DNA of 64,000 bases from an uncultured Burkholderiales bacterium (GTDB lineage Bacteria > Bacteroidota > Bacteroidia > UBA8524). A model generated the notes under the pieces. The model did no database searches, was not told the origin of the DNA, and saw nothing but the letters and a program-made list of their open reading frames with translations. The position numbers and the translations under genes were made by a program. Positions 3,052-37,219 of this stretch are shown in pieces. The stretch covers positions 45,652 through 109,651 of the forward strand of contig CAZUIT010000004.1 in NCBI GenBank assembly GCA_964620355.1, given 5' to 3'. The first letter of the stretch is position 1. Each line of letters starts with the position of its first letter.

Positions 3052-3163
3052 AGTACGTATTGTGATTCGCAAAAGGCGTGCAAAGATATGGAAAATGTGC
3101 TGGAGAAAATGGTCAAAAGCAACATGGTTTCAATCGATTAATTTTGAATGATTCTGAATTACA

Positions 3164-3175: not shown

Positions 3176-3252
3176 GGTTTCCACTTGAGTACCATCATTT
3201 TTTATAGCTTAGTGACAACGAACCTTTGTACACTAAAATAACGTTGACACAC

Positions 3253-8978: not shown

Positions 8979-9150
8979 ATCCTGCTTCCCAAGAGGAAGA
9001 ACATACACGGCTAATTTGAACTAGCGAATATATAAATAGTGATTCTCGAGTATTTCAAAAATACAAGTAGAATTTTCTCCATTTATAAAGCTTCTTGCGC
9101 GCCAATGGGATACCTAGTTATTGTGTTCCTATTCTAAACTAAATTATAAT

Positions 9151-11563: not shown

Positions 11564-13168
11564 CTAATGGAAAAGCACCACCTTTTGTGTGCTTTTCATA
11601 CTTGCCGAACGCAACACGACAAGCACCATAGTATTTCCATGAAGTATGGCTGATTCGATGCGGTGGCTTTCTGCTCCTGGACTGAGGTTTGTCAATGTGT
11701 GAGCATAAAGTAATTTTCCTTGCATGTCGAATACTTCCACAACAATTGGCTCTGCAGTTAATGCATTGAAATGTAAGTCAAGCTTATTTTTTGCTGGATT
11801 AGGAAGAACCTGCAATCCAAAACTTTTATAGCTTTCATTGTTCAGCTGTTCCATCCCAGTTTTTACCCCTTTAATGAGGCTGATTTTATAGATCGTTGGA
11901 CTGGCGCTACTTTCATTTCCTGTATTGATGAAAAAGATATTCTTCGCTGTACTCTGAATGCCACCGACCATATAGCCAATCAACGTAGTGTCGGCAGTCA
12001 AATCATCATACTTAAGTACGCCATTACCGAATTCGGGTAAATTATCTGCTGGAATAAATTCAGCACTTGCACCTAGATAATCGGGTAGCTCAATGCCCAT
12101 ATTATATTCCTTGAGCAGGCCATTTTGGTCCATGGTAACGCGAGATATACTTTTTACAAAGGGAACATTATCATCCTTTACTAGGGTTCCTGCACTGTCG
12201 TAATATTGGCTTATCCCTCCCAAGAAGAGGGTATGCATGGCCTTGTTATTTTCAGAATACAAGGGGATATGGGCACAATGGTATTGTTGGTAATATTGAG
12301 AAAAGGAATTCTCTAAACGGTACGACTGGCTGTCGATCACTACAGCAGTAAGAAATGGCAAGTCGGCTTGGACCTGAAAAACACCAGAGAACGCAATAAG
12401 TCCTTCTCCTCCATTCGGGAAGATTTGGGGCACCACATTATAGTCGCGGCGATGAAACACCGCTGGGTCAAAATCTTCAGCCAAGAAGTTTACACTTAGA
12501 TTAGTTCCATCATCTGATAGCGTAAATTTTCGATCAGCATTGGTATAGGTTTGGGTATAGCTGGCATGGCCCATTGGATTATAGCGTCCATCAAAACGCT
12601 GTCCTCCCGTTAAATGATAGACACCGTTAAGCTCATTTAGATATCCTCCAGTTACAGCGAAATTGGTATCGCTAATCTGACGGAAATCGTTCTGGATAGA
12701 TTGGCCATTTACCACATGATTCAGCAAAGAAGGCAGATGAATGGCACTCATAACCGCATGAGTGATATGAGTACCTTTGGTCATGCTATAACCATAGCCT
12801 CCGACCACATACAGAAAACTATCCGCTTGAATAAATTCCATATTGGTAGAGAGTAACTGCTCTTGAATAGAGATGGCAAGGGTGCTGATGGAAGCGGTCC
12901 AAACTTGTGCTGTTATTGGGTCGACCACGGTAATGAAATCATTTTGTCCAGCCTGGTCAAAGGATGCATTGGCTTGGCGCTTATGTAGGCCGTCCGTCCG
13001 TCCGCCAAGCAGAATCCATTTGCCCTCGTATTTAGCCCAAGCGTAGGATTGAATTCCAGGCATATTAGAAATGCTCATTGGTTCAACGGTCAACGTAAAA
13101 TCCTGAGCCAATAGTCCGGTTGGAAGAAGGAAAAGAAGGGAGATAAAAATGAAGGGTAGTTGTTTCAT
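11564..13168 (-). CDS. Secreted protein, possibly a beta-propeller, with a T9SS type-A C-terminal sorting domain
   Basis: Signal peptide MKQLPFIFISLLFLLPTGLLAQ. The C-terminal approximately 80 aa resemble a T9SS CTD and end VVLFH. Confidence 0.65.
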   Translation of the reverse strand: MKQLPFIFISLLFLLPTGLLAQDFTLTVEPMSISNMPGIQSYAWAKYEGKWILLGGRTDGLHKRQANASFDQAGQNDFITVVDPITAQVWTASISTLAISIQEQLLSTNMEFIQADSFLYVVGGYGYSMTKGTHITHAVMSAIHLPSLLNHVVNGQSIQNDFRQISDTNFAVTGGYLNELNGVYHLTGGQRFDGRYNPMGHASYTQTYTNADRKFTLSDDGTNLSVNFLAEDFDPAVFHRRDYNVVPQIFPNGGEGLIAFSGVFQVQADLPFLTAVVIDSQSYRLENSFSQYYQQYHCAHIPLYSENNKAMHTLFLGGISQYYDSAGTLVKDDNVPFVKSISRVTMDQNGLLKEYNMGIELPDYLGASAEFIPADNLPEFGNGVLKYDDLTADTTLIGYMVGGIQSTAKNIFFINTGNESSASPTIYKISLIKGVKTGMEQLNNESYKSFGLQVLPNPAKNKLDLHFNALTAEPIVVEVFDMQGKLLYAHTLTNLSPGAESHRIESAILHGNTMVLVVLRSASMKSTQKVVLFH

Positions 13169-19016: not shown

Positions 19017-20240
19017 TTAAACTAAGAGTTTAACCGGCTCCTCTATCAACTCTTTCAAGGTCAATAGGAACTGAGAACCCACAACACCATCCACTACACG
19101 ATGGTCGCAGCTGAGGGTTACTTTCATGGTTTTCCCAGGGCGCATTTCACCATTTTTCACGATAACGGTTTCTTTCACACCACCTACTGCAAGAATACAA
19201 GCGTCTGGTGGATTGATGATGGCGGTAAATTCTTCGATGCCGAACATGCCCAAATTAGAGATGGTGAAGGTGTTTCCCTCCCAGTCGCTTGGTTGGAGCT
19301 TTTTGTTTTTGGCTTTTTCTGAGAATACTTTCACCTCGCGGCTGATATCACTCAAGGCTTTATGGTCAGCGAATTTCACAACAGGAACCAAAAGTCCGTC
19401 TTCAACGGCCATGGCAACTCCAATATGGATATGGTGATTGAACCTAATTTTATCGCCTAACCAGCTGCTATTTACGGCTGGGTGCTTTCTTAAGGCAATG
19501 GCAGCTGCCTTCACAATCAAGTCATTCATAGAAATCTTCACATCAGCATATTCGTTGATGCTTGCGCGGGCCGCTACGATGCGATCCATTTCAATTTCCA
19601 TGGTCAGATAAAAATGAGGAGCGGTAAATTTGCTCTCTGCTAAACGACGTGCAATGGTTTTACGCATTTGAGAAACTTTCACTTCCTCGAAGCTTTCCTG
19701 TCCGAAACTTGCTATGGATGCTCCGGCGCCTGATGTGGCTGGAACAAAGTTTTCGATGTCTTTTTTGATGATTCGACCAAAATCGCCACTGCCTTGCACT
19801 TGAGCAAGGTCGATGCCTTTTTCTTCGGCCATTTTCTTAGCAAGTGGACTAGCCTTTAAACGAGTATTATCCGAAGCATTATTCGTTGCTGTCGGAGTTG
19901 AACTAGCTGGAGCCGGGCTTTCTTCAATCGGAGCGCTGGCAACTTCTTCTTCTGCTTTGCTTTCGTTCGCTGCTTCTTTCAAGATGGCTTCTATATCTTC
20001 TCCTTCTTTTCCTACTACTGCGATTACCGAATCAACCGGAACAGCATCTCCTTCAGCGATGCCGATATGCAAAAGAACGCCTTTCACATAGTTCTCAAGT
20101 TCCATGGTTGCTTTGTCGGTTTCAACCTCGGCTAGGATATCTCCCGGCGCAACGGTATCACCAACTTTTTTATTCCAAGCCACAATAACTCCTTCTGTCA
20201 TTGTATCACTCATCTTGGGCATGCGGATTACTTCGGCCAT
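19017..20240 (-). CDS. Dihydrolipoamide acyltransferase (E2) of a 2-oxoacid dehydrogenase complex, PDH-type
   Basis: N-terminal lipoyl domain MAEVIRMPKMSDTMTEG...ETDKATME, an Ala/Pro-rich linker, and a catalytic DHRVVDG motif. A TAATTTTG -7 box lies 25 nt upstream of the ATG. Confidence 0.85.
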   Translation of the reverse strand: MAEVIRMPKMSDTMTEGVIVAWNKKVGDTVAPGDILAEVETDKATMELENYVKGVLLHIGIAEGDAVPVDSVIAVVGKEGEDIEAILKEAANESKAEEEVASAPIEESPAPASSTPTATNNASDNTRLKASPLAKKMAEEKGIDLAQVQGSGDFGRIIKKDIENFVPATSGAGASIASFGQESFEEVKVSQMRKTIARRLAESKFTAPHFYLTMEIEMDRIVAARASINEYADVKISMNDLIVKAAAIALRKHPAVNSSWLGDKIRFNHHIHIGVAMAVEDGLLVPVVKFADHKALSDISREVKVFSEKAKNKKLQPSDWEGNTFTISNLGMFGIEEFTAIINPPDACILAVGGVKETVIVKNGEMRPGKTMKVTLSCDHRVVDGVVGSQFLLTLKELIEEPVKLLV

Positions 20241-23703: not shown

Positions 23704-25293
23704 TTAGTTCGAAGCGCTCGCTGCTTTAGGGGCAGCAGCCTTGATATCATCCGTTACGCCATCAGCAAATTGACCGAAGTTTTTCACGAATAAATCAGCG
23801 AGGTGAGCGGCTTTTGCATCATACGCAGCAGCATCCTTCCAAGTATTTCTTGGGTTCAAGATTTCTGAAGGTACATCTGGGCAACTTGTTGGAATACGCA
23901 TGCCGAATACTGGCAATGTATCATAGTTCACATTGTCAAGTTTTCCATCCAATGCAGCAGTAATCATGGCACGGGTATAAGAAAGTTTCATTCGATTACC
24001 TACTCCATAAGGGCCACCAGTCCAGCCCGTATTGATCAACCAAACGCGTGCTCCGCTTTCTTTCAATTTTTCGCCTAACATAGTTGCATACTTTCCAGGG
24101 TGCAATGGCAAGAACGCTTTTCCGAAACAAGCAGAGAATGTAGCTTGTGGCTCCGTAACGCCAGCCTCAGTTCCAGCAACTTTGGCGGTATATCCGCTGA
24201 TGAAGTGGTACATGGCTTGTTCTGGAGTTAGCTGAGAAATTGGAGGTAAAACACCAAAGGCATCAGCCGTTAAGAAGAAGATATTTTTAGGGGTATCTCC
24301 AACTGAAGGTACTGCAATATTGTCGACCAAATCAATTGGGTAGGCAGCACGGGTGTTTTCCGTTACGCTAACATTGGTATAGTCTACATCACGCGTTCCG
24401 TCAATCATACGCACGTTTTCAACGAGGGCACCAAAACGAATCGCATTGTAAATTTGTGGTTCTTTTTCTGCAGTTAGGTCAATACACTTGGCATAGCAAC
24501 CTCCTTCGAAATTGAATACAGATCCTTTCGCCCATCCGTGCTCGTCGTCACCGATAAGCTTACGCGTTGGATCAGCTGAAAGGGTGGTTTTTCCGGTACC
24601 AGAAAGACCGAAGAAAATGGCTGTGTCACCAGCTTGTCCAATATTTGCAGAACAATGCATGCTCAAAGTATTGCGCTCATGCGGAAGCACGTAGTTCAAT
24701 ACTGTGAAAATTCCCTTTTTAATTTCTCCAGTATATCCTGTTCCACCAATCAAAATAATCTTTTTGGTAAAATCGGTGATGGCGAAATTATGCTGACGTG
24801 TTCCATCAATAGTTGGACTAGCCATAAAAGAAGGAGCAGCCATGATTAACCAATCGTGTTGCTGTGTCTTTAATTCTTCTGTGCTAGGGCGCAAGAATAG
24901 GTTGTTAGCGAACAGATTTTGGTAAGCGGTTTCATTGATTACCTTGATGTTCAAGCGGTAGTTGTTGTCGGCACATGCGTAGGCATCGCGAACAAAAACT
25001 TCTTTGCCTTCGTAATGAGCAATCACCTTGTCGAGCAATTGATCAAATTTTTCACCTTCAAAACGGTTGTTTACATCACCCCACCAAACAGAATCTTTGG
25101 TATTGTCGTCGTAAACAACGAATTTGTCTTTGGGAGAACGACCCGTAAATTCACCGGTGTCTGCTGCCAATGCTCCTGTGCTAGTGAGTTCGCCCTCTCC
25201 GCGAAGGATGGCTTGCTCAACCAATTCGGCAGGCGACAAATTCATGTGCGCCTTGGATGCTTTACTGATAATTTTTTCTACGATTGAATTCAT
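23704..25293 (-). CDS. pckA: Phosphoenolpyruvate carboxykinase (ATP)
   Basis: 529 aa with the kinase-1a motif GLSGTGKTT and global PckA similarity. Confidence 0.95.
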   Translation of the reverse strand: MNSIVEKIISKASKAHMNLSPAELVEQAILRGEGELTSTGALAADTGEFTGRSPKDKFVVYDDNTKDSVWWGDVNNRFEGEKFDQLLDKVIAHYEGKEVFVRDAYACADNNYRLNIKVINETAYQNLFANNLFLRPSTEELKTQQHDWLIMAAPSFMASPTIDGTRQHNFAITDFTKKIILIGGTGYTGEIKKGIFTVLNYVLPHERNTLSMHCSANIGQAGDTAIFFGLSGTGKTTLSADPTRKLIGDDEHGWAKGSVFNFEGGCYAKCIDLTAEKEPQIYNAIRFGALVENVRMIDGTRDVDYTNVSVTENTRAAYPIDLVDNIAVPSVGDTPKNIFFLTADAFGVLPPISQLTPEQAMYHFISGYTAKVAGTEAGVTEPQATFSACFGKAFLPLHPGKYATMLGEKLKESGARVWLINTGWTGGPYGVGNRMKLSYTRAMITAALDGKLDNVNYDTLPVFGMRIPTSCPDVPSEILNPRNTWKDAAAYDAKAAHLADLFVKNFGQFADGVTDDIKAAAPKAASASN

Positions 25294-25320
25294 TACTTAA
25301 AGTAATTAATATAAAGGGGC

Positions 25321-25328
25321 AAAAATAG
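25321..25328 (-). promoter_or_regulatory. Candidate Bacteroidota -7 promoter element TATTTTTG for pckA
   Basis: The reverse complement of CAAAAATA matches TAnnTTTG, 25 nt upstream of the pckA ATG. Confidence 0.35.
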
Positions 25329-25420
25329 GCATTCATGTGAAATAGTGCTAATACAGATGCTATAGATTCTGATTTTTAATGCACAATGTCTATAATTATG
25401 GATGCATATCGCATTCTTGA

Positions 25421-25428
25421 AATTCCTA
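25421..25428 (+). promoter_or_regulatory. Candidate -7 promoter element TATATTTG for the 25457-29132 operon
   Basis: Exact TAnnTTTG, 28 nt upstream of the ATG at 25457. Confidence 0.35.
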
Positions 25429-25456
25429 TATTTGATAGTTAACTAACCTACTCGCT

Positions 25457-25738
25457 ATGGAACCAGCTACGATAAACAAAGAAGAAATTAAAGGTAAAGT
25501 GCGTTTCCCTTCTGTCGATGTCCTTGTAACCAAAGAGGCTAAAGAGGAGCGGAAAAAGAAATTGGACAAGGCCATGTTATTAGGAAATGGCTATAAAGGA
25601 AAGATTAAAATCATCTTCAATACAGAAGAGGGTGAACGTATGGTTGAAACTACTGTTTGGGCTACAACCGATTCAACTATTCAGCTAAAGGGCGATGTTT
25701 CTATCCCCATCCATGCCATCCGCGATGTGATTATTTAG
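25457..25738 (+). CDS. Small hypothetical protein (93 aa), first gene of the operon
   Basis: The ORF stop abuts the ATG of the next gene (TAG then ATG). The sequence is Lys-rich and beta-rich. Confidence 0.4.
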   Translation: MEPATINKEEIKGKVRFPSVDVLVTKEAKEERKKKLDKAMLLGNGYKGKIKIIFNTEEGERMVETTVWATTDSTIQLKGDVSIPIHAIRDVII

Positions 25739-26878
25739 ATGGTTCATGCCTTAAGTAAGCTCAGTTATGGGAATCAAGTCACCCTCTATCAAGGTGGAAA
25801 AGAGTACTTTGAGACGCTCTATGCACGGTTGAAAGAGGCGCATACTTTTATCCATATTCAGGTTTATATTCTGGCCAATGATCAAACGGGTCAGCGCTTA
25901 TTAGATGCCTTATTTGAGGCCGCTAGCCGGGGTGTTCAAGTATTTCTTATGTTGGATTCATTCGGTTGCTCTTGGGTACGAACGAAGCAAATTAAATTGT
26001 GGAAAGAAAGGGGGGTGCGCGTCAAATTATTCTCTCGAAGACTCCGTTTTCATAATTTGGTACTTGGACGTAGGCAGCATTCAAAACTTTTTATAATCGA
26101 TAATGAATGGATGAGTCTTGGTGGCTTAAACATGGCTGATCGATACAGTGGTTTTGATGGTTATACGCCATGGTTGGATATCGCATGCTGGGTGTATGGG
26201 CCCGCAGCTAAAGAGTTGAATGCACGTTGTGCGGTCTATTGGCCGAGGAAAATCAGGCGTTATTTAAGGAGTCAAAAGGGAATTGGGCCACAAAAAGAAG
26301 GAGTTAGCATTCAGATTCTTCTAAACGATTGGCTTAGGAATCGATTTGAAGTAAAAAACGCCTACCGAGAGGCGTTCGAGGGGGCGGAAAAGGAAATTTT
26401 AATTGTGGCGGCCTATTTTTTTCCAGCCCGACGCATGCTCAAACTATTAACAGAAAAGGCCAGATCAGGAGTCAAAGTCCGCTTGGTTTTTTCATCCGTG
26501 AGCGACGTTCCATTTGTGAAACCGGCGATGGAATATTTTTATAACCGGCTGCAGAAGGAAGGAGTGGAGATTCAAGAATGGCAAGAGAGCATTCTGCATG
26601 CAAAAGTGGCGGTGGTTGATAAGACTTGGTTTACTTTAGGTTCGTATAACCTTAATCAGTTGAGTGATTATGGAAGTTTAGAAACAAATTTAGGCATTCA
26701 TGATTCAGCGCTTACTGAACTTTTTCTCAATGAGTTAGAGTTGAGTGTATACCCCAAAAGCCGCGTGGTAAGGACGATAACCTCAAATTGGTATTGTCAA
26801 TTTAAGCGATACTTTTCCTATCTTGTGCTCCGATTTTCGCTGAATCTGATTTTATTATTGAACCGCCATAAACGGTAA
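25739..26878 (+). CDS. Phospholipase D / cardiolipin-synthase-like protein with two HKD motifs
   Basis: HSKLFIIDNEWMSLGGLN and HAKVAVVDKTWFTLGSYN are two H-x-K-x4-D motifs. Confidence 0.75.
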   Translation: MVHALSKLSYGNQVTLYQGGKEYFETLYARLKEAHTFIHIQVYILANDQTGQRLLDALFEAASRGVQVFLMLDSFGCSWVRTKQIKLWKERGVRVKLFSRRLRFHNLVLGRRQHSKLFIIDNEWMSLGGLNMADRYSGFDGYTPWLDIACWVYGPAAKELNARCAVYWPRKIRRYLRSQKGIGPQKEGVSIQILLNDWLRNRFEVKNAYREAFEGAEKEILIVAAYFFPARRMLKLLTEKARSGVKVRLVFSSVSDVPFVKPAMEYFYNRLQKEGVEIQEWQESILHAKVAVVDKTWFTLGSYNLNQLSDYGSLETNLGIHDSALTELFLNELELSVYPKSRVVRTITSNWYCQFKRYFSYLVLRFSLNLILLLNRHKR

Positions 26879-26880
26879 CT

Positions 26881-28503
26881 ATGTTTAAACACCTCAAAGA
26901 CGATTTACCGGCCTCATTGGTCGTGTATCTCGTGGCATTACCCTTATGTTTAGGGATTGCTATTGCATCTGATGCTCCTTTGTTTTCTGGTATGATCGCC
27001 GGAATCATTGGAGGAATTGTGGTCGGTAGCCTAAGTGGATCTTCTTTAAGTGTTAGTGGTCCTGCTGCTGGGCTTGCTGTGATAGTAGCAAGTGATATTC
27101 AAAACTTAGGAGACGTCGTCGCGCTTGACAAGATGGCTGCGTTGGATGGAGCGAAAAGCCTTGGCCTGGAAAGTGCTTTTGAGCTTTTCCTATTGTCTGT
27201 AGTCATTGCTGGAGTCTTTCAGTTTATTCTGGGTGCGCTGAAAGCCGGACGCATCGGTAATTATATTCCAAGCTCAGTTATTAAGGGAATGCTTGCTGCC
27301 ATTGGTTTGCTTCTTATTTTAAAACAAATTCCCCATGCTTTGGGAGTTGATACCGATTTTGAAGGGGATGAGTCTTTCATACAGGAAGATGGAGAAAACA
27401 CCCTTACTGAAATGTGGCATGCGTTTTTAGATTTTGCACCTGGTGCATTATTCATATCGCTCATTGCAGGCACAATCGTAATGGCGTGGGGGCTCAAATC
27501 ACTCAAACGCTATCTTTTATTTAAGTACATACCTGGCGCTTTGGTGGCAGTAATTTTGGGCGCATTAATCAATACGGCTTTTGGAATATGGATGCCTGAA
27601 TGGCAGCTTTCAGGGGATCATTTGGTTCGTTTACCACTCGATTCAGTACAAGGAAATCCTCAAGACCTTATCACATTGCCCGATTTTCGCGGCATTCAGC
27701 TACCCATTATTTGGAAAATTGCAGCCGTAATTGCCATCATCGCCTCCTTGGAATCTTTGCTATCGCTCGAAGCAAGTGATAAACTCGACCCTTTGCGTAG
27801 GATATCTCCACCAAATAAGGAGCTTAAGGCCCAAGGAATTGGAAATATAGTAAGTGGAATGATCGGTGGTTTACCGGTTACGGCAGTTATCGTGAGGAGT
27901 TCGGCGAATGTTGTTGCCGGAGCCCAGTCTCGACTTTCAGCAGTGGCACATGGTGTATTACTCCTCCTCTCCGTGCTATTGTTTCCGCAACTATTGAACT
28001 ATATCCCTAAATCAGCTCTTGCCGTTGTTTTGATTTTGGTTGGGTATAAATTGGTGAGCTGGGATGTTATTAAGCAGAATTATAATAAGGGGATTAATCA
28101 GTTTGCTCCATTTATAGTCACCGTCATTGCCATTGTGCTAACCGATTTGTTAAAAGGAATCGGGATAGGATTAATCGTCGGGGTAATTTTTGTTATTCGA
28201 TCCAACTACAATAGGGGAGTAACCTTTGTAAAGGAAGGAAATAACTGCCTCATCAAGCTTCGTGATAATGTTAGCTACTTGAATAAAGGATATTTGAGAA
28301 GTGAATTAGAAAAGCTTCCAAATGGAGTCAATGTGCTTATAGATGGCAGTGTGGCTCGATTTGTTGATCCAGACATCTATGAATTGATTGATGATTTTAT
28401 TCGCACCGCAAAGGAGAAGCAGATAAATATCGAGCTAAAAAGAACCATGACCAGCCAGAATGATTTATTTAAAATCGGAGGCAGAAAATTTGATAGTGAA
28501 TGA
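26881..28503 (+). CDS. SulP-family anion transporter with a STAS domain, a BicA-like bicarbonate transporter candidate
   Basis: The N-terminal sulfate-transporter signature and a C-terminal STAS domain. The gap to the upstream PLD gene is 2 nt, and the gene overlaps the downstream carbonic anhydrase by 4 nt (ATGA). Confidence 0.85.
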   Translation: MFKHLKDDLPASLVVYLVALPLCLGIAIASDAPLFSGMIAGIIGGIVVGSLSGSSLSVSGPAAGLAVIVASDIQNLGDVVALDKMAALDGAKSLGLESAFELFLLSVVIAGVFQFILGALKAGRIGNYIPSSVIKGMLAAIGLLLILKQIPHALGVDTDFEGDESFIQEDGENTLTEMWHAFLDFAPGALFISLIAGTIVMAWGLKSLKRYLLFKYIPGALVAVILGALINTAFGIWMPEWQLSGDHLVRLPLDSVQGNPQDLITLPDFRGIQLPIIWKIAAVIAIIASLESLLSLEASDKLDPLRRISPPNKELKAQGIGNIVSGMIGGLPVTAVIVRSSANVVAGAQSRLSAVAHGVLLLLSVLLFPQLLNYIPKSALAVVLILVGYKLVSWDVIKQNYNKGINQFAPFIVTVIAIVLTDLLKGIGIGLIVGVIFVIRSNYNRGVTFVKEGNNCLIKLRDNVSYLNKGYLRSELEKLPNGVNVLIDGSVARFVDPDIYELIDDFIRTAKEKQINIELKRTMTSQNDLFKIGGRKFDSE

Positions 28504-29132
28504 AAGATTACGAAAAACTCTTACTCGCCAATAAAGCCTGGGCAGCCGAAATGAATGAGGCAAACCCTAATTTCTTTGATAATCTAGCCAAAGCCCAAAC
28601 GCCTAAATTTCTATGGATTGGCTGCAGCGATTCACGGGTTCCCGCAAACCAGATTACCGGCACCGAGCCAGGTGAAATTTTCGTTCACCGTAATGTGGCA
28701 AATATGGTAGTTCATACTGATTTAAATATGCTCTCGGTATTGCAATATGCGGTTGAGGTATTGAAGGTAGAACATATTATGGTGGTTGGTCATTATGGTT
28801 GTGGTGGGGTGAAGGCTTCTTTGCAACAGAATCATCTCGGTCTGATAAATAAATGGCTTAGGAATATTAAAGAGGTCTATCAAATGCATAAAGAAGAGAT
28901 AGATATTACGGATGACCTAGACGAACGTGCAAGCCGCCTAGTAGAATTTAATATCCAAGAACAAGTAAAAAACCTGATGAAAACATCCATCATACAAAAG
29001 GCTTGGCAAACGGAACATAGACCCATGCTGCATGGTTGGGTGTATGGCATGGATAAGGGGGAGATCAGCGAAATAATTCGACTGGATCATACCCATGAAA
29101 TTGAGCCTATATTCAAATACACCTTTGACTAG
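28500..29132 (+). CDS. Beta-class carbonic anhydrase
   Basis: CSDSRVP and HYGCGG are zinc-ligand motifs of beta-CA. Confidence 0.9.
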   Translation: MKDYEKLLLANKAWAAEMNEANPNFFDNLAKAQTPKFLWIGCSDSRVPANQITGTEPGEIFVHRNVANMVVHTDLNMLSVLQYAVEVLKVEHIMVVGHYGCGGVKASLQQNHLGLINKWLRNIKEVYQMHKEEIDITDDLDERASRLVEFNIQEQVKNLMKTSIIQKAWQTEHRPMLHGWVYGMDKGEISEIIRLDHTHEIEPIFKYTFD

Positions 29133-29202
29133 TTTTCTAGTACAAAATTTGTTGTAGCCCAGTAAAGGTTTTACGTGGAATTTATTTAAAAAGATGTAAC
29201 CT

Positions 29203-29571
29203 TTGCGGTTGAAAATGAGTAGAAAAGAGCATCAAGCCATAAAATCCTGGCCCCAATATTTTGGGTTGTTCTTGCTATTGCTCATGCTTTCGGTCCAAAT
29301 GGTTTCTACCCAGTTCCTCAAAAAATCAGGAAACCTAGTAGACCTTGATGCAATTGCCTACTCAATTGAAACAGATGCTCCTTTAGAAGAACTGAATGGG
29401 AGTGAGGATAATTTCCTTTATTCACAGATTCTCTACTCCAAAAATCGCATGGAGGTGGCATTTCAATTGAATAATACGCTCATCTTTACCTGTGGTAGAG
29501 CCAATGTGCCCCATTTTAATCAGGCACGTTATATTCTATTCAGTAATCCCAAATTTGATTGTCTCGTCTAG
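29203..29571 (+). CDS. Hypothetical small membrane or secreted protein
   Basis: ORF with a hydrophobic N-terminal segment, located between the carbonic anhydrase and dabA. Confidence 0.3.
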   Translation: MRLKMSRKEHQAIKSWPQYFGLFLLLLMLSVQMVSTQFLKKSGNLVDLDAIAYSIETDAPLEELNGSEDNFLYSQILYSKNRMEVAFQLNNTLIFTCGRANVPHFNQARYILFSNPKFDCLV

Positions 29572-29724
29572 TCCCGGAAATTTAATCGGTTAACGCCGTA
29601 TTAGTATTTGGGCTTGATTATTCCGTTTTGCCATTAATTAATCACCGGTTCTGGCCGTTAAAGCGTTTTGGAACCGCCATCGGAATTCACGTAATCGTGG
29701 AACATTTTCAATCAAATTATATTC

Positions 29725-32229
29725 ATGTCACACAAGAAAGCATCGTTTTCTGAGCATGAGATTCTGCATAAGCTAAAGCATTATTTGCCGGCACAGTCCC
29801 CACTCAAAGACTTTATTCATCATAATACATTACATGCATTTCAAGACAGGCCTTTTCATGAGGCCGTTCACGAAGCATCTTCCTTATTTGGATACCATGT
29901 ATATCTGAGCCTCGAAGAATTCAGAGACCGTTATGCACAGGGTAAAATTAATCCAGACATCCTAACCCGCACCCTGATTGATAGCAAAGGAGCCGATTCG
30001 GTTGAAGCATGGATGGACAAATTACTTCATAAGACTTATGCGCTAGACCTAAGTCCTCGAGTAGGGGCCTTACGAAAGGAATGGAAGGAAAGGGCGCACG
30101 TAAACCTCGATAAAGAGGTGCATCCAATTTTGTTTCGACTTACTGGTGCCTATCTTGATCAAGGCATTGCAATCTGGCAATTTCCCAAGGTGAAAGGTGG
30201 TTTTTTAGCCTCCATTCGGGTTCTAGAATCTTCGGCGGTACGTGGGATTTTTAGAAGCCAACGGGTTAAAAAACTCTTGGAGGAAGAAAAGACTGGCCTT
30301 AGCGATTTACTCCAAATTATTGTTGGAAATGAGCATTACTACGACCAATATCTTTTCGACATGTCTTTCGCTCACCCGGGTTGGTCAGGCATGGTAGCCA
30401 TGGTGGAAGAAAAACCTGAGTCGTTGTTGGCAAGCAGACAAATTAGCCTGGAGTCTTTTATAATCTTAGAACTCCTTTTAGAAATCGATACCCTCGATCG
30501 GAAATGGGGGGAAAACTGGAAACCGCTGTTCCCTCGCTTAGAAATCCTTCCTCAACCTTTATTTGACCCGATTGAGCCTTCGGAATTATTTGAAGTCTAT
30601 GCCTTGTTTCAGGAAGCTCTGGAATGGACCTACTACGATGAGGTCATTCGTGGTCTCCAAAAAGGGCACGGTGCAGAGATTCGGAAGTCAACAGCTGACA
30701 ATCGATTTCAAGCCATGTTTTGTATCGATGATCGGGCATGTTCCTTGCGCCGACAGATAGAGGCAGAGGCCCCAAATAGTCAGACTTTCGGCACGGCGGG
30801 CTTTTTTAATGTGGCCTTTTATTTTCAGCCTGAGCACAGTAAATTCTATACAAAAGTTTGTCCGGCACCGGTCACACCCAAGCACCTCATCAAAGAATCG
30901 GAAGCTTCCATGCGCCACGAGAAAGATGCGCATTTTCACCGTCATTCTTCGGGCTTATTGGGTGGATGGATTATTTCGCAGACCCTCGGCTTTTGGTCGG
31001 CAATAAAGATGGCTGTGGGAATATTCCGTCCTGCCGAATCGCCGGCTATGGTTTCCTCTTTTAAGCATATGGATCCACAGGGTAAACTAACGATCGAATG
31101 CGATGCTGAATGCCCGAATGAAGGAAGTTTACAAGTGGGATACACGCTTTCGGAGATGGTCGATTGTATGGAAGGCCTCCTTAAAAGTATAGGACTCACC
31201 TCGGACTTTGCCCCATTGGTATACATTATTGGGCATGGAGCGAGTAGCGTAAATAATACCCATTATGCGGGATATGATTGTGGCGCATGTAGCGGCCGAG
31301 CAGGTTCCGTAAACGGGCGCGTGGCAGCATCCATGCTCAATCGGAGTGATGTTCAGCTGCTCTTGGGAGATAGAGGTATTTCCATCCCAAAAAACACCCA
31401 GTTTATAGGGGGCTTACATGATACTACTCGCGATGAAATGGACTTCTATGATCTGGATATTCTTTCTAAAGAGAACCTGATTCAACACTTGGCCCATGTA
31501 AAAGTATTCGACACCGCACTAGATAATAATGCCAAAGAACGTTCCCGCCGATTCTTATTGACCGATTCCAATAAAGATGCAGAGCAGGTGCATAAAAGCA
31601 TCAAACTTCGTGCGCTTTCTTTGTTTGAACCTCGTCCGGAATGGAACCATGCAACCAATAGCCTTTGTCTTGTAGGACGTCGCGCTACAAATAAGCACCT
31701 GTTTCTAGATCGCAGAGCCTTCTTAAACTCCTATGATTATCAGGTTGACCCTAATGGAGAGTGGCTCCTTGGAATTCTCAATGCCGTGGCCCCAGTTTGT
31801 GGAGGGATTAACTTGGAGTATTATTTCTCGCGGGTAGACAACTATCGTCTAGGTGCTGGTTCCAAGTTGCCTCATAATGTGGTGGGCTTAATTGGGGTTG
31901 CCAATGGAATGGATGGAGATTTACGTCCTGGTTTGCCCTTACAGATGATTAATATCCACGAGCCCCTGCGATTGATGGTGACGGTTGAACATCATCCGGA
32001 AATTGTTTTGGCAATCATCAAGAAGAACCCAGCTACGTATGAGTGGTTTGAAAATGATTGGGTGGCATTGGTCGTGAATGATCCTGACTCCGGAGAGGTT
32101 TTCCGCTTTAGAAATGGCGCATTTGAACCTTATTACCCATTAGGTCAAGAGCCTAAGATGATCGACAATTTGGTTGACGTATTCGAAAAAGAGGAGGATA
32201 ACCTTCCTGTTTACATACTAAGCGCATAA
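29725..32229 (+). CDS. dabA: DUF2309 / DabA-like subunit of a DAB-type CO2-uptake complex
   Basis: 834 aa. FCIDDRACS is a beta-CA-like CxDxR motif. GHGASSVNNTHYAGYDCGAC supplies a His with a Cys 15 residues later, matching the zinc ligands reported for DabA. A NuoL-like gene follows 2 nt downstream. Confidence 0.8.
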   Translation: MSHKKASFSEHEILHKLKHYLPAQSPLKDFIHHNTLHAFQDRPFHEAVHEASSLFGYHVYLSLEEFRDRYAQGKINPDILTRTLIDSKGADSVEAWMDKLLHKTYALDLSPRVGALRKEWKERAHVNLDKEVHPILFRLTGAYLDQGIAIWQFPKVKGGFLASIRVLESSAVRGIFRSQRVKKLLEEEKTGLSDLLQIIVGNEHYYDQYLFDMSFAHPGWSGMVAMVEEKPESLLASRQISLESFIILELLLEIDTLDRKWGENWKPLFPRLEILPQPLFDPIEPSELFEVYALFQEALEWTYYDEVIRGLQKGHGAEIRKSTADNRFQAMFCIDDRACSLRRQIEAEAPNSQTFGTAGFFNVAFYFQPEHSKFYTKVCPAPVTPKHLIKESEASMRHEKDAHFHRHSSGLLGGWIISQTLGFWSAIKMAVGIFRPAESPAMVSSFKHMDPQGKLTIECDAECPNEGSLQVGYTLSEMVDCMEGLLKSIGLTSDFAPLVYIIGHGASSVNNTHYAGYDCGACSGRAGSVNGRVAASMLNRSDVQLLLGDRGISIPKNTQFIGGLHDTTRDEMDFYDLDILSKENLIQHLAHVKVFDTALDNNAKERSRRFLLTDSNKDAEQVHKSIKLRALSLFEPRPEWNHATNSLCLVGRRATNKHLFLDRRAFLNSYDYQVDPNGEWLLGILNAVAPVCGGINLEYYFSRVDNYRLGAGSKLPHNVVGLIGVANGMDGDLRPGLPLQMINIHEPLRLMVTVEHHPEIVLAIIKKNPATYEWFENDWVALVVNDPDSGEVFRFRNGAFEPYYPLGQEPKMIDNLVDVFEKEEDNLPVYILSA

Positions 32230-32231
32230 AG

Positions 32232-34109
32232 ATGGAAGCCAATTATTTCATTGCCAGTTTTGTGCTGATTCCGATGTTTGGGTTTCTCATTTCGCTATTC
32301 CTGCCGGAAAGAAAAGAGATGGCCTTGTCGAGACTTGCTTTTTATACCGTAGGCTTGCAATTGCTCATTGCGGTGGGTTTCTCCCTTGTATGGTTATGGC
32401 AAGGTGCGGAGGCATTTAATATAAAGGAGCTGTCACTGTATGATTCAGAGGCTTATCGATTTCTGATTGATTTTTATTTCGACAAGGTCACAGCTGTATA
32501 CTTGATTGTGGGGTCATTCGTTACTTTCCTTATCACCCGTTACAGTGGCTATTACCTCCATATGGAGGCGGGGTATAAACGCTTTTTCAATACCATCCTA
32601 TTCTTTTATTTGGCCTATAACTTTACGGTGCTCTCAGGGAATTTTGAGACACTTTTTATTGGCTGGGAGATGCTCGGGATTTCTTCCTTTTTGCTGATTG
32701 CTTTTTACCGTGAACGCTATTTGCCTGTTCGGAATGCAGTAAAGGTTTTTTCAATCTACCGTATCGGGGATGTTGGGATACTGCTGGCCATGTGGGCAAT
32801 GCATCACCTATGGCACGACAATATCACATTCTCTCGCTTGCATAACTATGAGTTGGTCCATGATCAATTGATGGGGCATTCGGGTATTGGGATGTTCATC
32901 GCAATTTGTCTGCTCATTGCGGCAGCTGCGAAATCGGCACAATTGCCTTTTTCCTCTTGGCTTCCGCGTGCGATGGAAGGTCCAACCCCTTCGTCGGCCA
33001 TTTTTTATGGTTCTCTGTCGGTACATTTTGGCGTTTTCCTGCTCTTGCGCACCTTTCCGTTTTGGGAGCATCAACTCTCTGCTCGAATCTTAATCGGAGT
33101 ACTCGGCTTAACAACGGCAATTGTGGCCTTTCTTATCGCTCGGGTACAATCCACTATTAAGACGCAGATTGCCTATGCCTCCATCTCCCAAATTGGAATC
33201 ATGTTCATCGAAGTGGCACTCGGACTGGAGAATCTGGTTTTACTGCATTTTGCAGGCAATGCCTTTCTCAGAACATACCAGTTGCTGGTGTCTCCTTCGG
33301 TGGTGAGCTATATGATTCGCGACCAGTTCTATAATTACCAAAAAGAAGAGGTGGGCAGGAAGGTGAATTTACCAAGCCGCATCCAACGTTCGTTTTACCT
33401 GCTTTCACTTAAGGAGTGGAACCTTGATCGACTATTGAATAAATACATCTTCCGCTTCATTAAATTCTTAGGACGGAAGCTGGATTTCATCACGCCTAAA
33501 AATGCGCTATACGTAGTTGTTCCAATTTATTTATTGGGCATTTGGTTATACCTGAATCAGGAGTTTTTAAGCCAAGAAGTATTTGAAAACCTCCCTGAAA
33601 TTTTCTCGCTGTTTGGGTTGTTACTGGTATTTAAGTCCTTTTCAGAACGCCGTTATCCATGGCTTGCTTGGGTATTGGTAGCCATGGGGCATTTCTGGGT
33701 AGCCTTGGCAATTTCTTTCAATGAACATTTCGACTTCAACCATTCCGTACTCTACCTGAGTGGCGTCGTTGGTGGTGGCCTAGTAGGGCTCGTTTGCTTG
33801 AATCTGCTGAAGCAACGTGAACCAAATTATTATGACTTGAATACCTATTACGGCCATGTATATGAACATCCGAGATTGGCGATGATCTTTTTGATTTCCG
33901 CATTGTGTTTGATGGGATTTCCAATCAGCATGACTTTTATCGGAGAGGATTTGATCTTTAGTCATATCCATCAGGACCAGTACATCTTGGCTATTTTTAA
34001 TTCATTCAGTTACGTGATTGGCGGCATTGCGCTGGTACGCATTTATTCCCGGCTCTTTTTAGGGCCACATATTAAAACCTATCATTCTACTCCATTAAAA
34101 TCATCTTAA
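32232..34109 (+). CDS. dabB: NuoL/MnhA-like proton-pumping membrane subunit (Proton_antipo_M family), DabB-like
   Basis: 625 aa and polytopic, with the GWEMLGISSFLLIAFY motif of complex-I antiporter-like subunits. Confidence 0.75.
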   Translation: MEANYFIASFVLIPMFGFLISLFLPERKEMALSRLAFYTVGLQLLIAVGFSLVWLWQGAEAFNIKELSLYDSEAYRFLIDFYFDKVTAVYLIVGSFVTFLITRYSGYYLHMEAGYKRFFNTILFFYLAYNFTVLSGNFETLFIGWEMLGISSFLLIAFYRERYLPVRNAVKVFSIYRIGDVGILLAMWAMHHLWHDNITFSRLHNYELVHDQLMGHSGIGMFIAICLLIAAAAKSAQLPFSSWLPRAMEGPTPSSAIFYGSLSVHFGVFLLLRTFPFWEHQLSARILIGVLGLTTAIVAFLIARVQSTIKTQIAYASISQIGIMFIEVALGLENLVLLHFAGNAFLRTYQLLVSPSVVSYMIRDQFYNYQKEEVGRKVNLPSRIQRSFYLLSLKEWNLDRLLNKYIFRFIKFLGRKLDFITPKNALYVVVPIYLLGIWLYLNQEFLSQEVFENLPEIFSLFGLLLVFKSFSERRYPWLAWVLVAMGHFWVALAISFNEHFDFNHSVLYLSGVVGGGLVGLVCLNLLKQREPNYYDLNTYYGHVYEHPRLAMIFLISALCLMGFPISMTFIGEDLIFSHIHQDQYILAIFNSFSYVIGGIALVRIYSRLFLGPHIKTYHSTPLKSS

Positions 34110-34126
34110 CCCCAACCTAACGTATC

Positions 34127-35716
34127 ATGCATACAGATAATATAAAAGTTCCAGCTTCTGGACTTCAAGGATTCAAAGAAAATTGGAAATCCGATATTCT
34201 TCCGGGGTTCCTCGTATTTTTATTAGCATTACCCCTTAGCTTGGGAATTGCGAAGGCCAGCGGTTTCCCTGCTGCTATGGGTGTACTCACTGCCATGATT
34301 GGTGGAATATTCGTTAGCTTTTTTAAGGTTTCTGAACTTACTATCAAAGGCCCAGCTGCTGGATTGATTACCGTTTGTGCAGCGTCTATCGCAGCCATGG
34401 GGGGTGGCGATATTGGTTGGCATGCTACAGGTGCGATTATCGTAACGATGGCAGCGCTACAAATTGTATTCGCCTACCTCAAGTTTGGTTCGTTTAGTGA
34501 TTTTTTCCCCCATTCAGCGGTGCATGGAATGCTTGCGGCTATCGGCTTAATCATCATCGCCAAACAAATCCCAGTGCTCTTGGGTGATGACCCAATGACT
34601 TACAAAGGAGAAGGTCCTATTGAGTTGTTTATGGATATTCCTCGCTTTATTCAGGCCGCCCATTGGCATATTGCACTAATTGGAATTATAAGCTTAGTGA
34701 TTCTTTTCGGATTACCCATGCTCAAGATTAATTTCTTGAAAAAAGTTCCTGCACCAATGATTGTGCTATTGATGGCCATTCCTTTGGCTATTTCCATGCA
34801 TTTCAGGGAAGATGAGCCTGCATATTCTATGGTAACGGTGGGTGATTTCTGGGAAAACGTAAAGGTACAAGTCGATTTTTCTAGCATTGGAACCATGACC
34901 TTTTGGAAATTTGTGTTCATGTTCCTTTTTGTGAATAGTTTAGAGTCCTTACTTACAGTCAAGGCAATTGATAATCTGGATCCATTCAAGCGGGAATCGA
35001 GCTATAACGGTGACTTAAAAGCGCTGGGTGCCGGAAATGCACTTGCCGGCTTATTAGGTGGTTTGCCAATGATTTCTGAAGTGGTACGTAGCTCAGCTAA
35101 CGTTGGGTTTGGAGCGAGAACAAAATGGTCGAATTTCTTCCATGGGATTTTTCTTTTCCTCGCCATGCTTTTAGTGATTCCGGTAATTGAGATGATCCCG
35201 AATACAGCCTTAGCAGCTATGCTAATCTACGCGGGTTATCGCCTAGCTGCACCACGTGAATTCTTCAATACCTACAAAATTGGGAAGGAACAATTAGCGA
35301 TTTTCTTGGTTACCATTTTAGTGACTTTACTCGAAGACTTGCTCTTAGGAATTGCTGCCGGAATCCTAATGAAATTTATTTTCCACCTTGCCAATGGAGC
35401 ACCACTTGCCAGCTTGTTTAAAGCGAACTATGTGGTAGAACAAACAGAAAACAAAACGACGATTAACATTAGCGGGTCGGCCGTATTCTCCAATTTGCTG
35501 GGCTATAAAAAGGTCCTGAATAATTTGCCTGAGAAACAAAAAGTGGTAGTGAATTTTGCCACAACGCGTTTGGTGGATCATTCCTTTATGCATTTTGTAA
35601 ACCATTTCGAAAGAGAGTACAATTTTCGCGGTGGAAATTTTAGCATCGTCGGTCTTGAAAATCATACCGCACTTTCCGGTCATGAGCTTGCTACACGTAA
35701 ATTGAAAAAAGTATAA
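34127..35716 (+). CDS. Second SulP-family anion transporter with a STAS domain
   Basis: SulP N-terminal signature and a C-terminal STAS-like domain, 17 nt after dabB. Confidence 0.85.
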   Translation: MHTDNIKVPASGLQGFKENWKSDILPGFLVFLLALPLSLGIAKASGFPAAMGVLTAMIGGIFVSFFKVSELTIKGPAAGLITVCAASIAAMGGGDIGWHATGAIIVTMAALQIVFAYLKFGSFSDFFPHSAVHGMLAAIGLIIIAKQIPVLLGDDPMTYKGEGPIELFMDIPRFIQAAHWHIALIGIISLVILFGLPMLKINFLKKVPAPMIVLLMAIPLAISMHFREDEPAYSMVTVGDFWENVKVQVDFSSIGTMTFWKFVFMFLFVNSLESLLTVKAIDNLDPFKRESSYNGDLKALGAGNALAGLLGGLPMISEVVRSSANVGFGARTKWSNFFHGIFLFLAMLLVIPVIEMIPNTALAAMLIYAGYRLAAPREFFNTYKIGKEQLAIFLVTILVTLLEDLLLGIAAGILMKFIFHLANGAPLASLFKANYVVEQTENKTTINISGSAVFSNLLGYKKVLNNLPEKQKVVVNFATTRLVDHSFMHFVNHFEREYNFRGGNFSIVGLENHTALSGHELATRKLKKV

Positions 35717-35795
35717 TTGCTCAATGGAATCCTATCTAATGAGAATATTGACAAGAAAGAGGTCGTTGATAAAACAACGAATAATTTCAATTTCT

Positions 35796-37145
35796 ATGAA
35801 AAAAATTTTGATTTCGGTGCTTGCGCTGTTCCCTGCAGTGGCACTCGCACAAAACAAAGATTTGCGTGTAAATCTCAATGAAGACGGTTCACATTATTTC
35901 AAATTTATGGGTCTCTCCCAAGTCTGGTTGCGCTATGATCAAAGCAATCCAGGCTCGACTATGTATGGGGATGAGGTTGAATCCACCTACGATATAGGAA
36001 TTCGCCGACTTCGATTTCAGGCGTATGGACAACTGAGTGATCGGGTATTTGTCTATACCCAATTTGGACAAAACAACCTAAATCGTATGGCCTCGCGAAA
36101 AACGGGTGGATTTTTCCATGATGCCATTGTAGAATATGCCGCGGTCAAGAGAAAGCTTTCTTTGGGTGCTGGTATGACGGGCTGGAGCGGATTGAGTAGG
36201 TATGCCAGTCCGAGTGTGGGTAGTATTTTGAGTCTTGATGCTCCGCTTTACCAGCAAGCTACTAACGACATAAATGATATCTTCTTAAGGAAGCTCAGTG
36301 TTTATGCCAAGGGTAAATTGGGCAAATTGGATTACCGCGTTGCTATCACAAATCCATTCCCTGTGCAAAGTGCAACGACTGGGATTAATGGCTCCTTGGT
36401 TGGTGCGGTAGATACTATTATCACGACCAATTCAACCTTTAATCCGCGAAAAGCCAAAGCTCAATTTCAGGGTTATTTCATGTACCAGTTTAAGGATGAA
36501 GAGAGCAATCTCACTCCATATACCACTGGAACATACCACGGCAAAAAAGACGTGTTTAACATCGGGGTTGGCTTCATTTATCAAGCTCAAGCTACGAGAA
36601 GAGCACTGGAGTTTAATGACTCATTGGGCTTCCAGGGGGGAGAAACAAACGACATGCTTTTACTATGTGTCGATATGTTCTATGATCATCCAATAAACGA
36701 AGAAAAAGGAACGGCTCTAACCTTGTATGGATCGTTTTCTAGCTATGATTTTGGACCCGGCTACTTGCGTTATACCGGAGTAATGAATCCAACGAATGGA
36801 CTTACCACCGGCAATTACCAAAAAGGCAATAATGGAAATGCATTCCCAATGATTGGTACCGGTCAAATCATCTATATCCAAGGAGGCTATAAGTTAAAAA
36901 ACGAACTATTCGGCAAGCAAGGCACTTTGCAACCATACGCCGATATGATGCTTGCCAATTACGATCGATTGAACGGTCCTATGGCAGTCTATGAAGCGGG
37001 TATAAATTGGTTAATTACTGGACATAGCGCCAAGATGACTTTGGGCTTGCAAAACAGGCCAGTTTTTAATCCCGACCTGAATGGAACTTTAACAGAACAA
37101 GGAAGAAAGAGCATGATTACGCTCCAATACCAAATTAGCATTTAA
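35796..37145 (+). CDS. Predicted outer-membrane beta-barrel porin, possibly anion-selective (phosphate-porin-like)
   Basis: Signal peptide MKKILISVLALFPAVALAQ. The sequence has beta-strand-rich alternating hydrophobicity and an aromatic-rich C-terminus. The start is trimmed from the 35724 extension. Confidence 0.45.
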   Translation: MKKILISVLALFPAVALAQNKDLRVNLNEDGSHYFKFMGLSQVWLRYDQSNPGSTMYGDEVESTYDIGIRRLRFQAYGQLSDRVFVYTQFGQNNLNRMASRKTGGFFHDAIVEYAAVKRKLSLGAGMTGWSGLSRYASPSVGSILSLDAPLYQQATNDINDIFLRKLSVYAKGKLGKLDYRVAITNPFPVQSATTGINGSLVGAVDTIITTNSTFNPRKAKAQFQGYFMYQFKDEESNLTPYTTGTYHGKKDVFNIGVGFIYQAQATRRALEFNDSLGFQGGETNDMLLLCVDMFYDHPINEEKGTALTLYGSFSSYDFGPGYLRYTGVMNPTNGLTTGNYQKGNNGNAFPMIGTGQIIYIQGGYKLKNELFGKQGTLQPYADMMLANYDRLNGPMAVYEAGINWLITGHSAKMTLGLQNRPVFNPDLNGTLTEQGRKSMITLQYQISI

Positions 37146-37185
37146 GACTGAGGGTTTACCAGACAGCGAAAATCGGTTAATCCCT

Positions 37186-37219
37186 GAAGCCGCAACTTAG
37201 GTTGCGGCTTTTCTTTTTT
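37186..37219 (+). terminator. Rho-independent terminator after the porin gene
   Basis: GAAGCCGCAAC-TTAG-GTTGCGGCTT followed by TTCTTTTTTG. Confidence 0.6.

Follow-up and report, generated by a model that had tools for sequence, protein, structure and literature searches.

The DAB complexes, also known as DAC and, in Staphylococcus aureus, as MpsAB, pair DabA, a cytoplasmic beta-carbonic-anhydrase-like subunit, with DabB, a NuoL/NdhF-like membrane subunit; the family is established in heterotrophs as well as autotrophs, and such pumps are already known from autotrophs and a few pathogens. In the structure of DAB2 from H. neapolitanus (9rd0), zinc sits on Cys351, His524 and Cys539 of DabA2 and its bound water is held by an Asp353-Arg355 dyad, and growth at low CO2 suffers when any zinc ligand or dyad residue is changed to alanine. 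The membrane finger of DabA2 has at its tip Glu444, a proton relay that cannot be exchanged for Ala or Gln without complete loss of DAB2 activity, and DabB2 reportedly has Ile151 in place of NuoL Glu144 and a Lys235/Asp185 ion pair in the proton path. For flavobacteria, a SulP-type bicarbonate transporter and a carbonic anhydrase (CA) that together feed anaplerosis have been proposed for over a decade (PMC3595038, PMC4148732), and in Synechocystis the transcription unit of the cmpABCD bicarbonate transporter contains a porin gene, slr0042 (PMC4195498). Here we describe a locus in a 64,000-nucleotide stretch of contig CAZUIT010000004.1 (assembly GCA_964620355.1; hereafter the window) in which dabA and dabB are followed by a SulP gene and a porin gene and preceded by a SulP-CA pair. 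On balance, we favor a reading in which the region is made up of two independently conserved inorganic-carbon modules and three lineage-specific passenger genes lying beside pckA, with the DabAB-SulP2-porin module probably supplying carbon.

Conservation of the DabAB-SulP2-porin module

Genes were called from a six-frame list of open reading frames (ORFs) in the window and assigned to families with Pfam and NCBIfam. All ten genes described in a first-pass annotation of the sequence were found in the ORF list at the positions given below, and the Pfam and NCBIfam matches bear out its identification of DabA, DabB, two SulPs, a beta-CA, a PLD protein and PckA. The module of main interest, module B (29725-37211), consists of dabA (29725-32229, + strand; PF10070, DabA/DUF2309, E = 2.7e-216), dabB (32232-34109, +; PF00361/PF00662, Proton_antipo_M/N, 1.3e-39), sulP2, encoding the second SLC26/SulP transporter of the locus (34127-35716, +; PF00916, 2e-49), and the gene for an outer-membrane porin (35796-37145, +, within the ORF 35724-37145), ending in an intrinsic terminator (37186-37211, +) with an 11-bp stem, six pairs of which are GC, followed by the T run TTTCTTTTTT. 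Only 2 nt separate dabA from dabB and 17 nt separate dabB from sulP2. The porin most likely starts at 35796, which gives a protein of 449 aa with the signal peptide MKKILISVLALFPAVALA and matches the calls on public contigs, and with this start the SulP2-porin gap is 79 nt instead of 7.

All window proteins were searched against 80 loci around DabA relatives of 53-62% identity, drawn from one-genome-per-species contigs and nearly all from Bacteroidota. DabB was adjacent to DabA in 78 of the 80 loci, and a SulP2-type gene lay near DabA in 54, or in 34 of the 47 loci with full flanks. A porin homologue was present near DabA in 21 loci and adjoined SulP2 in 20, an adjacency kept whether the pair lies downstream of dabAB, upstream of it or divergent from it (for example in loci L031, L035, L039 and L068). 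Culturable relatives with the DabAB-SulP2-porin order include Arcicella rigui (L037) and Flavobacterium sp. 9AF (L073). SulP1-type genes and beta-CA genes occurred near DabA less often (9/80 and 8/80, respectively), and pckA, the PLD gene and the genes for the 93-aa and 118-aa proteins described below were found near DabA in none (0/80). The expectation that gene linkage would be conserved is upheld for DabA-DabB-SulP2-porin and for SulP1-CA and fails for pckA, PLD and the 93-aa and 118-aa genes; pckA is a divergent neighbor outside the conserved module. Flavobacteriia had been suggested as the taxonomic frame for such a comparison, and the nearest named DabA relatives turned out to be Cyclobacteriaceae (Cytophagales), at 60-62% identity, such as those of Rhodonellum, Lunatimonas, Aquiflexum and Cyclobacterium.

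Several of these loci carry a second type of candidate outer-membrane protein. A DUF2490 protein (PF10677, E = 2.5e-45; ~250 aa, with a signal peptide) is encoded near DabA in 17 of the 80 loci, and in these 17 the 450-aa porin has no homologue. Its gene lies ~0-200 nt after SulP2 in L019, L024, L025, L036, L045, L053, L058, L062, L063, L066, L075, L080 and L084 and between DabB and SulP2 in L070 and L076, and it occurs in L029, which has no SulP2-type gene. From its position and signal peptide the DUF2490 protein looks like an alternative outer-membrane partner, and one or the other candidate, porin or DUF2490, is present in 36 of the 54 SulP2-carrying DabA loci.

A reciprocal scan from the porin side, on metagenome contigs, gave 80 porin loci (160 related loci together with those around DabA), 50 of which had enough upstream sequence. 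The gene immediately upstream of the porin was SulP2 in 18 of the 50, a 179-aa degenerate beta-CA-like ORF in nine, a canonical beta-CA in two, a gene for a HMA-domain protein in seven and another gene in 14. The porin family is thus tied strongly, and not exclusively, to inorganic-carbon genes. The 179-aa ORF, found in 12 metagenome loci, matches the C-terminal part of beta-CA below threshold (Pro_CA, 1.2e-4), and its representative has no obvious CxDxR or HxxC zinc motif; it sits between SulP2 and the porin in L112, L128, L132, L133, L140, L142, L145, L146, L148, L152, L153 and L158.

Some further variants of the architecture were seen in the course of these comparisons. The SulP2 orthologue is 730-766 aa long in some metagenome-assembled genomes (MAGs) of Cyclobacteriaceae/Cytophagales (L031, 6272-8572; L035, 6724-8916, minus strand), with an extra C-terminal domain of ~200 aa in L031 and L035 that has no assigned family. 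In Flavobacterium-like loci (L025, L033, L066, L067, L073 and L075), genes for a TonB-dependent receptor, a small HMA protein with a signal peptide and a HYC_CC_PP protein lie just upstream of dabA, and in L120, L125, L141, L150, L151, L162 and L165 the HMA gene immediately precedes the porin gene, dabAB-sulP2 being absent from the interval. This arrangement looks as if a dabAB-sulP2 cassette had been gained or lost, or as if there were a connection to a metal, possibly zinc. In a locus labelled Planctomycetota (L074, 5412-14500), dabA-dabB occurs twice, as divergent pairs placed back to back, and one of these is only 30-34% identical to the window proteins. A Bacteroidota-type dabA-dabB-sulP2 at 54% identity was found in L069 (Azotobacter chroococcum DSM 2286) and in L066, a MAG labelled Variovorax paradoxus, and these two Proteobacteria-labelled loci could reflect contamination, mis-binning or horizontal transfer.

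Catalytic and coupling residues of DabAB and the porin fold

The window DabA is a complete member of its family, residues 15-780 spanning positions 2-747 of the 747-position PF10070 profile. In the HMMER alignment to DabA2 (9rd0_A, E = 9e-70), C333, D335, R337, H504 and C519 fall on C351, D353, R355, H524 and C539, the zinc ligands and the dyad of the solved enzyme, and the placement of C333, D335 and R337 was also obtained in a MAFFT fragment alignment. All five residues are invariant in the 80 DabA relatives, so the set of zinc ligands that the first-pass annotation had proposed checking against DabA2 is intact. The membrane finger is a different matter. Both HMMER and MAFFT align DabA2 Glu444 with K428 (window 31006-31008), a position occupied by Lys in 47 and Arg in 27 of the 80 relatives (74 together), the other six having the uncharged residues Gln (3), Ser (2) or Pro (1), so that it is acidic in none; K428 is the sole charged residue within the hydrophobic hairpin, where low local similarity permits a shift of the alignment by one or two residues.

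The membrane subunit also departs from DAB2. DabB matches DabB2 (9rd0_B) at 5e-29 and NdhF at 3e-40, NdhF and NuoL scoring better than DabB2, which ranked 31st among the solved-structure matches, and it is 625 aa long compared to 551 aa for DabB2. All 75 orthologues compared have E146, R177, D180 and K234 unchanged, and these four align with the corresponding residues of NdhF. E146 is the glutamate of the WE motif in the fifth transmembrane helix (TM5; window 32667-32669), and it is placed at the position of DabB2 Ile151 by the published description of that protein rather than by a residue-level alignment to DabB2. From these residues we infer a distinct DAB subtype with NuoL-like coupling residues, the alignment lying in a region of low similarity, and proton coupling in the Bacteroidota DabAB clade may accordingly be wired more like that of NuoL, with a charge-swapped relay.

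The porin has no match in Pfam or NCBIfam even at E values up to 10, including Porin_O_P (PF07396), and its family of 2401 homologues has no Pfam model; a precomputed PF07396 assignment appears for one of 120 listed homologues. An AlphaFold2 model built on 32 homologues (pLDDT 79, pTM 0.80) is a beta-barrel, and the protein has both a signal peptide and 16 strands. Among its top fold matches are the anion-selective porins OprP and Omp32.

Module A, pckA and transcription signals

Upstream of dabA lies module A (25457-29132), which comprises the 93-aa ORF heading the first block (25457-25738, +), the PLD-superfamily gene (25739-26878, +; PLDc_2, 3.4e-39), the SLC26/SulP anion transporter gene sulP1 (26881-28503, +; PF00916, Sulfate_transp, 6.2e-59) and the gene for a cytoplasmic, Can-like beta-CA (28500-29132, +; PF00484, Pro_CA, 1e-55), which overlaps sulP1 by 4 nt. 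The zinc motifs CSDSR and HYGCGG are seen in the translation of the beta-CA, which scores 246.8 bits against the Can equivalog NF007756, just below its cut-off of 251. Both SulPs resemble the solved bicarbonate transporter BicA, which is the best solved relative of SulP1 (6ki1, 6e-24), and the two are paralogues with 31% pairwise identity. Their description as SulP/STAS transporters stands as far as PF00916 is concerned, and the STAS domain falls below the Pfam threshold in both (SulP2, the better, E = 0.16; SulP1, no match); alignments to full-length SLC26Dg (5da0) nevertheless enter the C-terminal domain, reaching chain residues 470-475 of 505. A SulP1-type gene followed by a beta-CA gene was also found in, for example, L022, L023, L029, L055, L093, L134-L136 and L138. 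SulP1-beta-CA is thus a separate recurrent pair and the sole part of module A that recurs elsewhere.

The remaining small genes and the PLD gene are probably lineage-specific passengers. The PLD protein matches PLDc_2 in two stretches and carries the active-site motif PF00614 (E = 1.5e-12); it is closest to ClsB, and at 223 bits it failed the ClsB model NF008427, which has a cut-off of 281, leaving it a predicted cardiolipin-synthase-B-like member of the PLD superfamily of unassigned specificity. Membership of the PLD gene in the SulP1-CA pair was rejected, with no homologue in the 160 related loci. The 93-aa protein has no Pfam or NCBIfam family, and compared to an orthologue (86% amino acid and 76% nucleotide identity) its gene differs at 10, 7 and 51 first, second and third codon positions, a pattern indicating that it is coding and under strong constraint. 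It belongs to a broad family of unannotated proteins of ~95 aa in 441 representative clusters, some of which form a C-terminal domain after a CBS pair, and as its homologues occur in contexts unrelated to inorganic carbon, it was rejected as a partner specific to dissolved inorganic carbon (DIC). The 118-aa gene (29215-29571, +, within the ORF 29203-29571), which lies between the modules, most likely starts at the ATG at 29215 rather than at 29203. Its product, found in this lineage alone, is predicted to cross the membrane once; the length of the protein and the C-terminal motif GRAxVPxxNQxRYILFxNPKxDC are kept in four relatives, and codon-position differences of 23/14/49 mark the ORF as a real coding gene. 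A profile of the protein found no match in the other DabA or porin loci, that is, outside its own lineage, and a relationship to the small membrane ORFs upstream of dabA or the porin, or to HYC_CC_PP, was rejected, since the profile and NCBIfam searches were both empty.

Divergent from module A, 163 nt away from the 93-aa gene, is pckA (23704-25293, - strand), encoding an ATP-dependent PEP carboxykinase (PF01293, PEPCK_ATP, 2e-222; NF006820, 850 bits, cut-off 636) with a terminator at 23685-23658. The divergent promoter region (25320-25434, both strands) contains two -7 boxes of the TAnnTTTG type, TATATTTG at 25427-25434 (+), heading the first block, and TATTTTTG at 25320-25327 (-), facing pckA. 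Both boxes are invariant in five relatives in which the intervening spacer varies, and from their Bacteroidota-type motif they are putative promoters. These boxes, the terminator behind the porin and the junctions of 163, 2 and 17 nt and the 4-nt overlap all agree with the first-pass annotation. Its picture of tight junctions throughout holds within blocks and breaks down on both sides of the 118-aa gene, which, with its start at 29215, is separated from the beta-CA gene by 82 nt and from dabA by 153 nt, so that the nine genes form three tight blocks instead of one. A motif scan did not find TANNTTTG in either of the gaps around the 118-aa gene, and the sequence upstream of dabA is weakly conserved among relatives. 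A sigma-70 scan was uninformative (26 sites compared to 31 expected), and Rfam searches of the whole window, and of 25200-29800 at a relaxed threshold, gave no riboswitch or other RNA, the sole match being a chance snoRNA (E = 0.6).

In its other genes the window fits an aerobic heterotrophic member of the Bacteroidota, 64 kb being too short to rule out autotrophy: there are genes for 2-oxoglutarate dehydrogenase, fumarase and a cbb3 oxidase, along with SecA and gliding-type ABC components. CcoN and CcoO of the cbb3 oxidase form a single fused ORF of 725 aa (3226-5403), the genes for the 2-oxoglutarate dehydrogenase E1 (337-3072) and E2 (19017-20240) components are separated by 16 kb, and two large ORFs at 9121-11556 (811 aa) and 11564-13168 (534 aa) have no Pfam family.

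Proposed function and comparison with known systems

Given homology to DAB2, DabAB would use the proton motive force to drive the irreversible hydration of cytoplasmic CO2 to bicarbonate. The porin would let bicarbonate through the outer membrane, SulP2 would take it on through the inner membrane, and the SulP1-beta-CA pair would likewise move bicarbonate across the inner membrane and equilibrate it with CO2. A cell drawing on both CO2 and HCO3- in this way could feed its bicarbonate-dependent carboxylases even under CO2 scarcity. The analysis shows what the genes are, the catalytic residues, the fold of the porin and the conserved linkages. For SulP1, SulP2 and the porin, we infer the substrates and the direction of transport, as well as the co-transcription of the genes and their physiological role, from sequence.

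A number of observations weigh against this assignment. SulP/SLC26 proteins carry many different anions, and the two SulPs do not reach the NCBIfam BicA equivalog NF050096 (132.6 bits for SulP1 and 103.7 for SulP2, with a cut-off of 880). The porin, a candidate anion channel, has about as many invariant acidic as basic residues, the latter including R70, R71, R73, R135, R165, K166, K172, R181, K413 and R421, and the gene directly upstream of it is not an inorganic-carbon gene in 21 of the 50 loci (HMA-domain in seven). The change of Glu444 to Lys/Arg hits a residue that is essential for DAB2 activity. A cytoplasmic beta-CA would dissipate the bicarbonate pool if it was co-expressed with a bicarbonate pump, and MpsAB/DAB and CA reportedly seldom coexist in one species (PMC8567241), which together suggest either separate regulation of the blocks or the alternative of pH homeostasis considered below. 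No recognizable -7 box or terminator was found in the window between module A and dabA, making one long read-through transcript possible. Finally, support for the proteins of this clade comes from sequence and structure prediction.

The first-pass annotation had taken the nine genes as a single co-regulated island, divergent from pckA, that supplies PEP carboxykinase anaplerosis and includes the PLD gene and the porin as integral parts, a proposal we now regard as improbable. It would account for the location of all nine genes on the same strand, with a single conserved -7 box in front of them, a single strong terminator behind them and no clear ones in between, and close relatives with DabA identities of 85% and 67-68% have the whole set, pckA among it, in the same order. 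The same relatives, however, also keep the flanking genes (2-oxoacid dehydrogenase E2, thymidylate synthase, OmpA, histidine phosphatase, nitroreductase and SUI1), and since these unrelated flanks are equally syntenic, the nine-gene order reflects general synteny, not selection for linkage. Outside this lineage, pckA and the PLD, 93-aa and 118-aa genes are missing from all 80 porin loci as they are from the 80 DabA loci, the 93-aa homologues occur in unrelated contexts, and in the slightly more distant L171 SulP2 and the 118-aa gene are already absent, with the porin gene moved to the opposite strand, next to a canonical beta-CA. The 2-oxoglutarate dehydrogenase, fumarase and cbb3 oxidase of the window suggest that the TCA cycle runs aerobically, a setting where PckA is normally gluconeogenic. 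Moreover, the substrate of ATP-PEP carboxykinase is CO2, not bicarbonate, so a bicarbonate-accumulating system is not its natural supplier.

Two other explanations concern module B itself. It might serve pH or ion homeostasis, with DabAB producing H+ and HCO3-, SulP2 exporting or exchanging the bicarbonate and the porin releasing it, such that the cytoplasm is acidified in alkaline water. Many of the Cyclobacteriaceae that are closest in DabA among named taxa live in alkaline or saline waters, and SLC26 proteins include anion exchangers. This explanation would also remove the conflict of a cytoplasmic CA beside a bicarbonate accumulator, and pH regulation is raised in the DAB paper as a possible role of carbonic anhydrases in heterotrophs. 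We nonetheless consider it unlikely, if worth keeping in mind, because the same architecture is present in many freshwater genera, among them Runella, Emticicia, Arcicella, Flavobacterium and Aquirufa, all characterized DAB/MpsAB systems serve DIC supply, and the sequence gives no sign of which way transport runs. Uptake of sulfate, another anion or an organic acid by SulP2 and the porin, with the proximity to dabAB functionally meaningless, is more doubtful still, and we give it very little weight. PF00916 is chiefly a sulfate-permease family, the fumarate transporter SLC26Dg matches as well as BicA, the scores of both SulPs are far below the BicA equivalog cut-off, and ~40% of porin loci have no inorganic-carbon gene directly upstream. 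Adjacency to dabAB is kept in 54 of 80 species, though, across many families and in three orientations, beta-CA or beta-CA-like genes also join the SulP2-porin pair, and no sulfate-assimilation genes are among the recurrent neighbors.

If the carbon-supply reading of DabAB-SulP2-porin is true, it bears on the incorporation of inorganic carbon by abundant freshwater and soil heterotrophs; if pH homeostasis is true, the locus would put a vectorial carbonic anhydrase to a new use. More tentatively, and as a possibility rather than an expectation, many Bacteroidota may have a hitherto undescribed envelope-spanning inorganic-carbon system, composed of a dedicated outer-membrane channel (this porin or, in other lineages, a DUF2490 protein), a dedicated SulP and a charge-swapped DAB subtype, with which bacteria that are not autotrophs would actively harvest both CO2 and HCO3- from dilute waters. 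What is new is that in a large group of environmental Bacteroidota dabAB is accompanied by a specific SulP paralogue, with an outer-membrane protein in the majority of the SulP2 loci (36/54). This outer-membrane protein is the first candidate for an outer-membrane bicarbonate-entry step outside cyanobacteria, the locus joins two uptake routes usually treated as alternatives, and the change of Glu444 to Lys/Arg offers a natural variant for probing the proposed proton-coupling mechanism of DAB. The searchable literature, which leaves most subscription journals outside its scope, describes neither DAB in Bacteroidota nor dabAB together with a SulP and an outer-membrane protein; within that scope, the architecture appears to be undescribed, and the claim that no porin has been described for DAB systems holds.

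Compared to known systems, the porin shares its 16-strand architecture with the anion-selective OprP of Pseudomonas and Omp32 of Comamonas/Delftia, with identities of 10-13%, the non-selective Omp-Pst1 scoring slightly higher and Porin_O_P giving no match. Its likeness to slr0042 lies in the presence of an outer-membrane porin gene within a bicarbonate-uptake transcription unit, whereas slr0042 is of the SLH/OprB type (PMC8707739) and the window porin, with a general-porin fold and no Pfam model, belongs to another family; cmpABCD is also a different inner-membrane transporter, and Synechocystis an autotroph rather than a heterotroph. The SulPs have the SLC26/SulP membrane domain and perhaps also the short C-terminal STAS-like domain of the BicA/SulP bicarbonate transporters, and SulP1, translationally coupled to the beta-CA, follows the known pattern of SulP-CA gene pairs, although both lie far under the BicA equivalog threshold and are two paralogues whose fixed partners differ, the beta-CA for SulP1 and dabAB plus the porin for SulP2. 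The closest system remains DAB2, with which the locus shares the dabA-dabB unit (PF10070 and PF00361), the Cys2His zinc site, the Asp-Arg dyad and a NuoL-like DabB with what may be the equivalent Lys/Asp pair. It differs in the distance to both solved proteins (matches of only 9e-70 for DabA and 5e-29 for DabB), in having Lys/Arg instead of Glu444 in the finger and probably in keeping the TM5 WE glutamate where DabB2 is reported to have Ile151, and, while DAB1 and DAB2 are not described with a SulP or an outer-membrane protein, the putative operon of the window has both.

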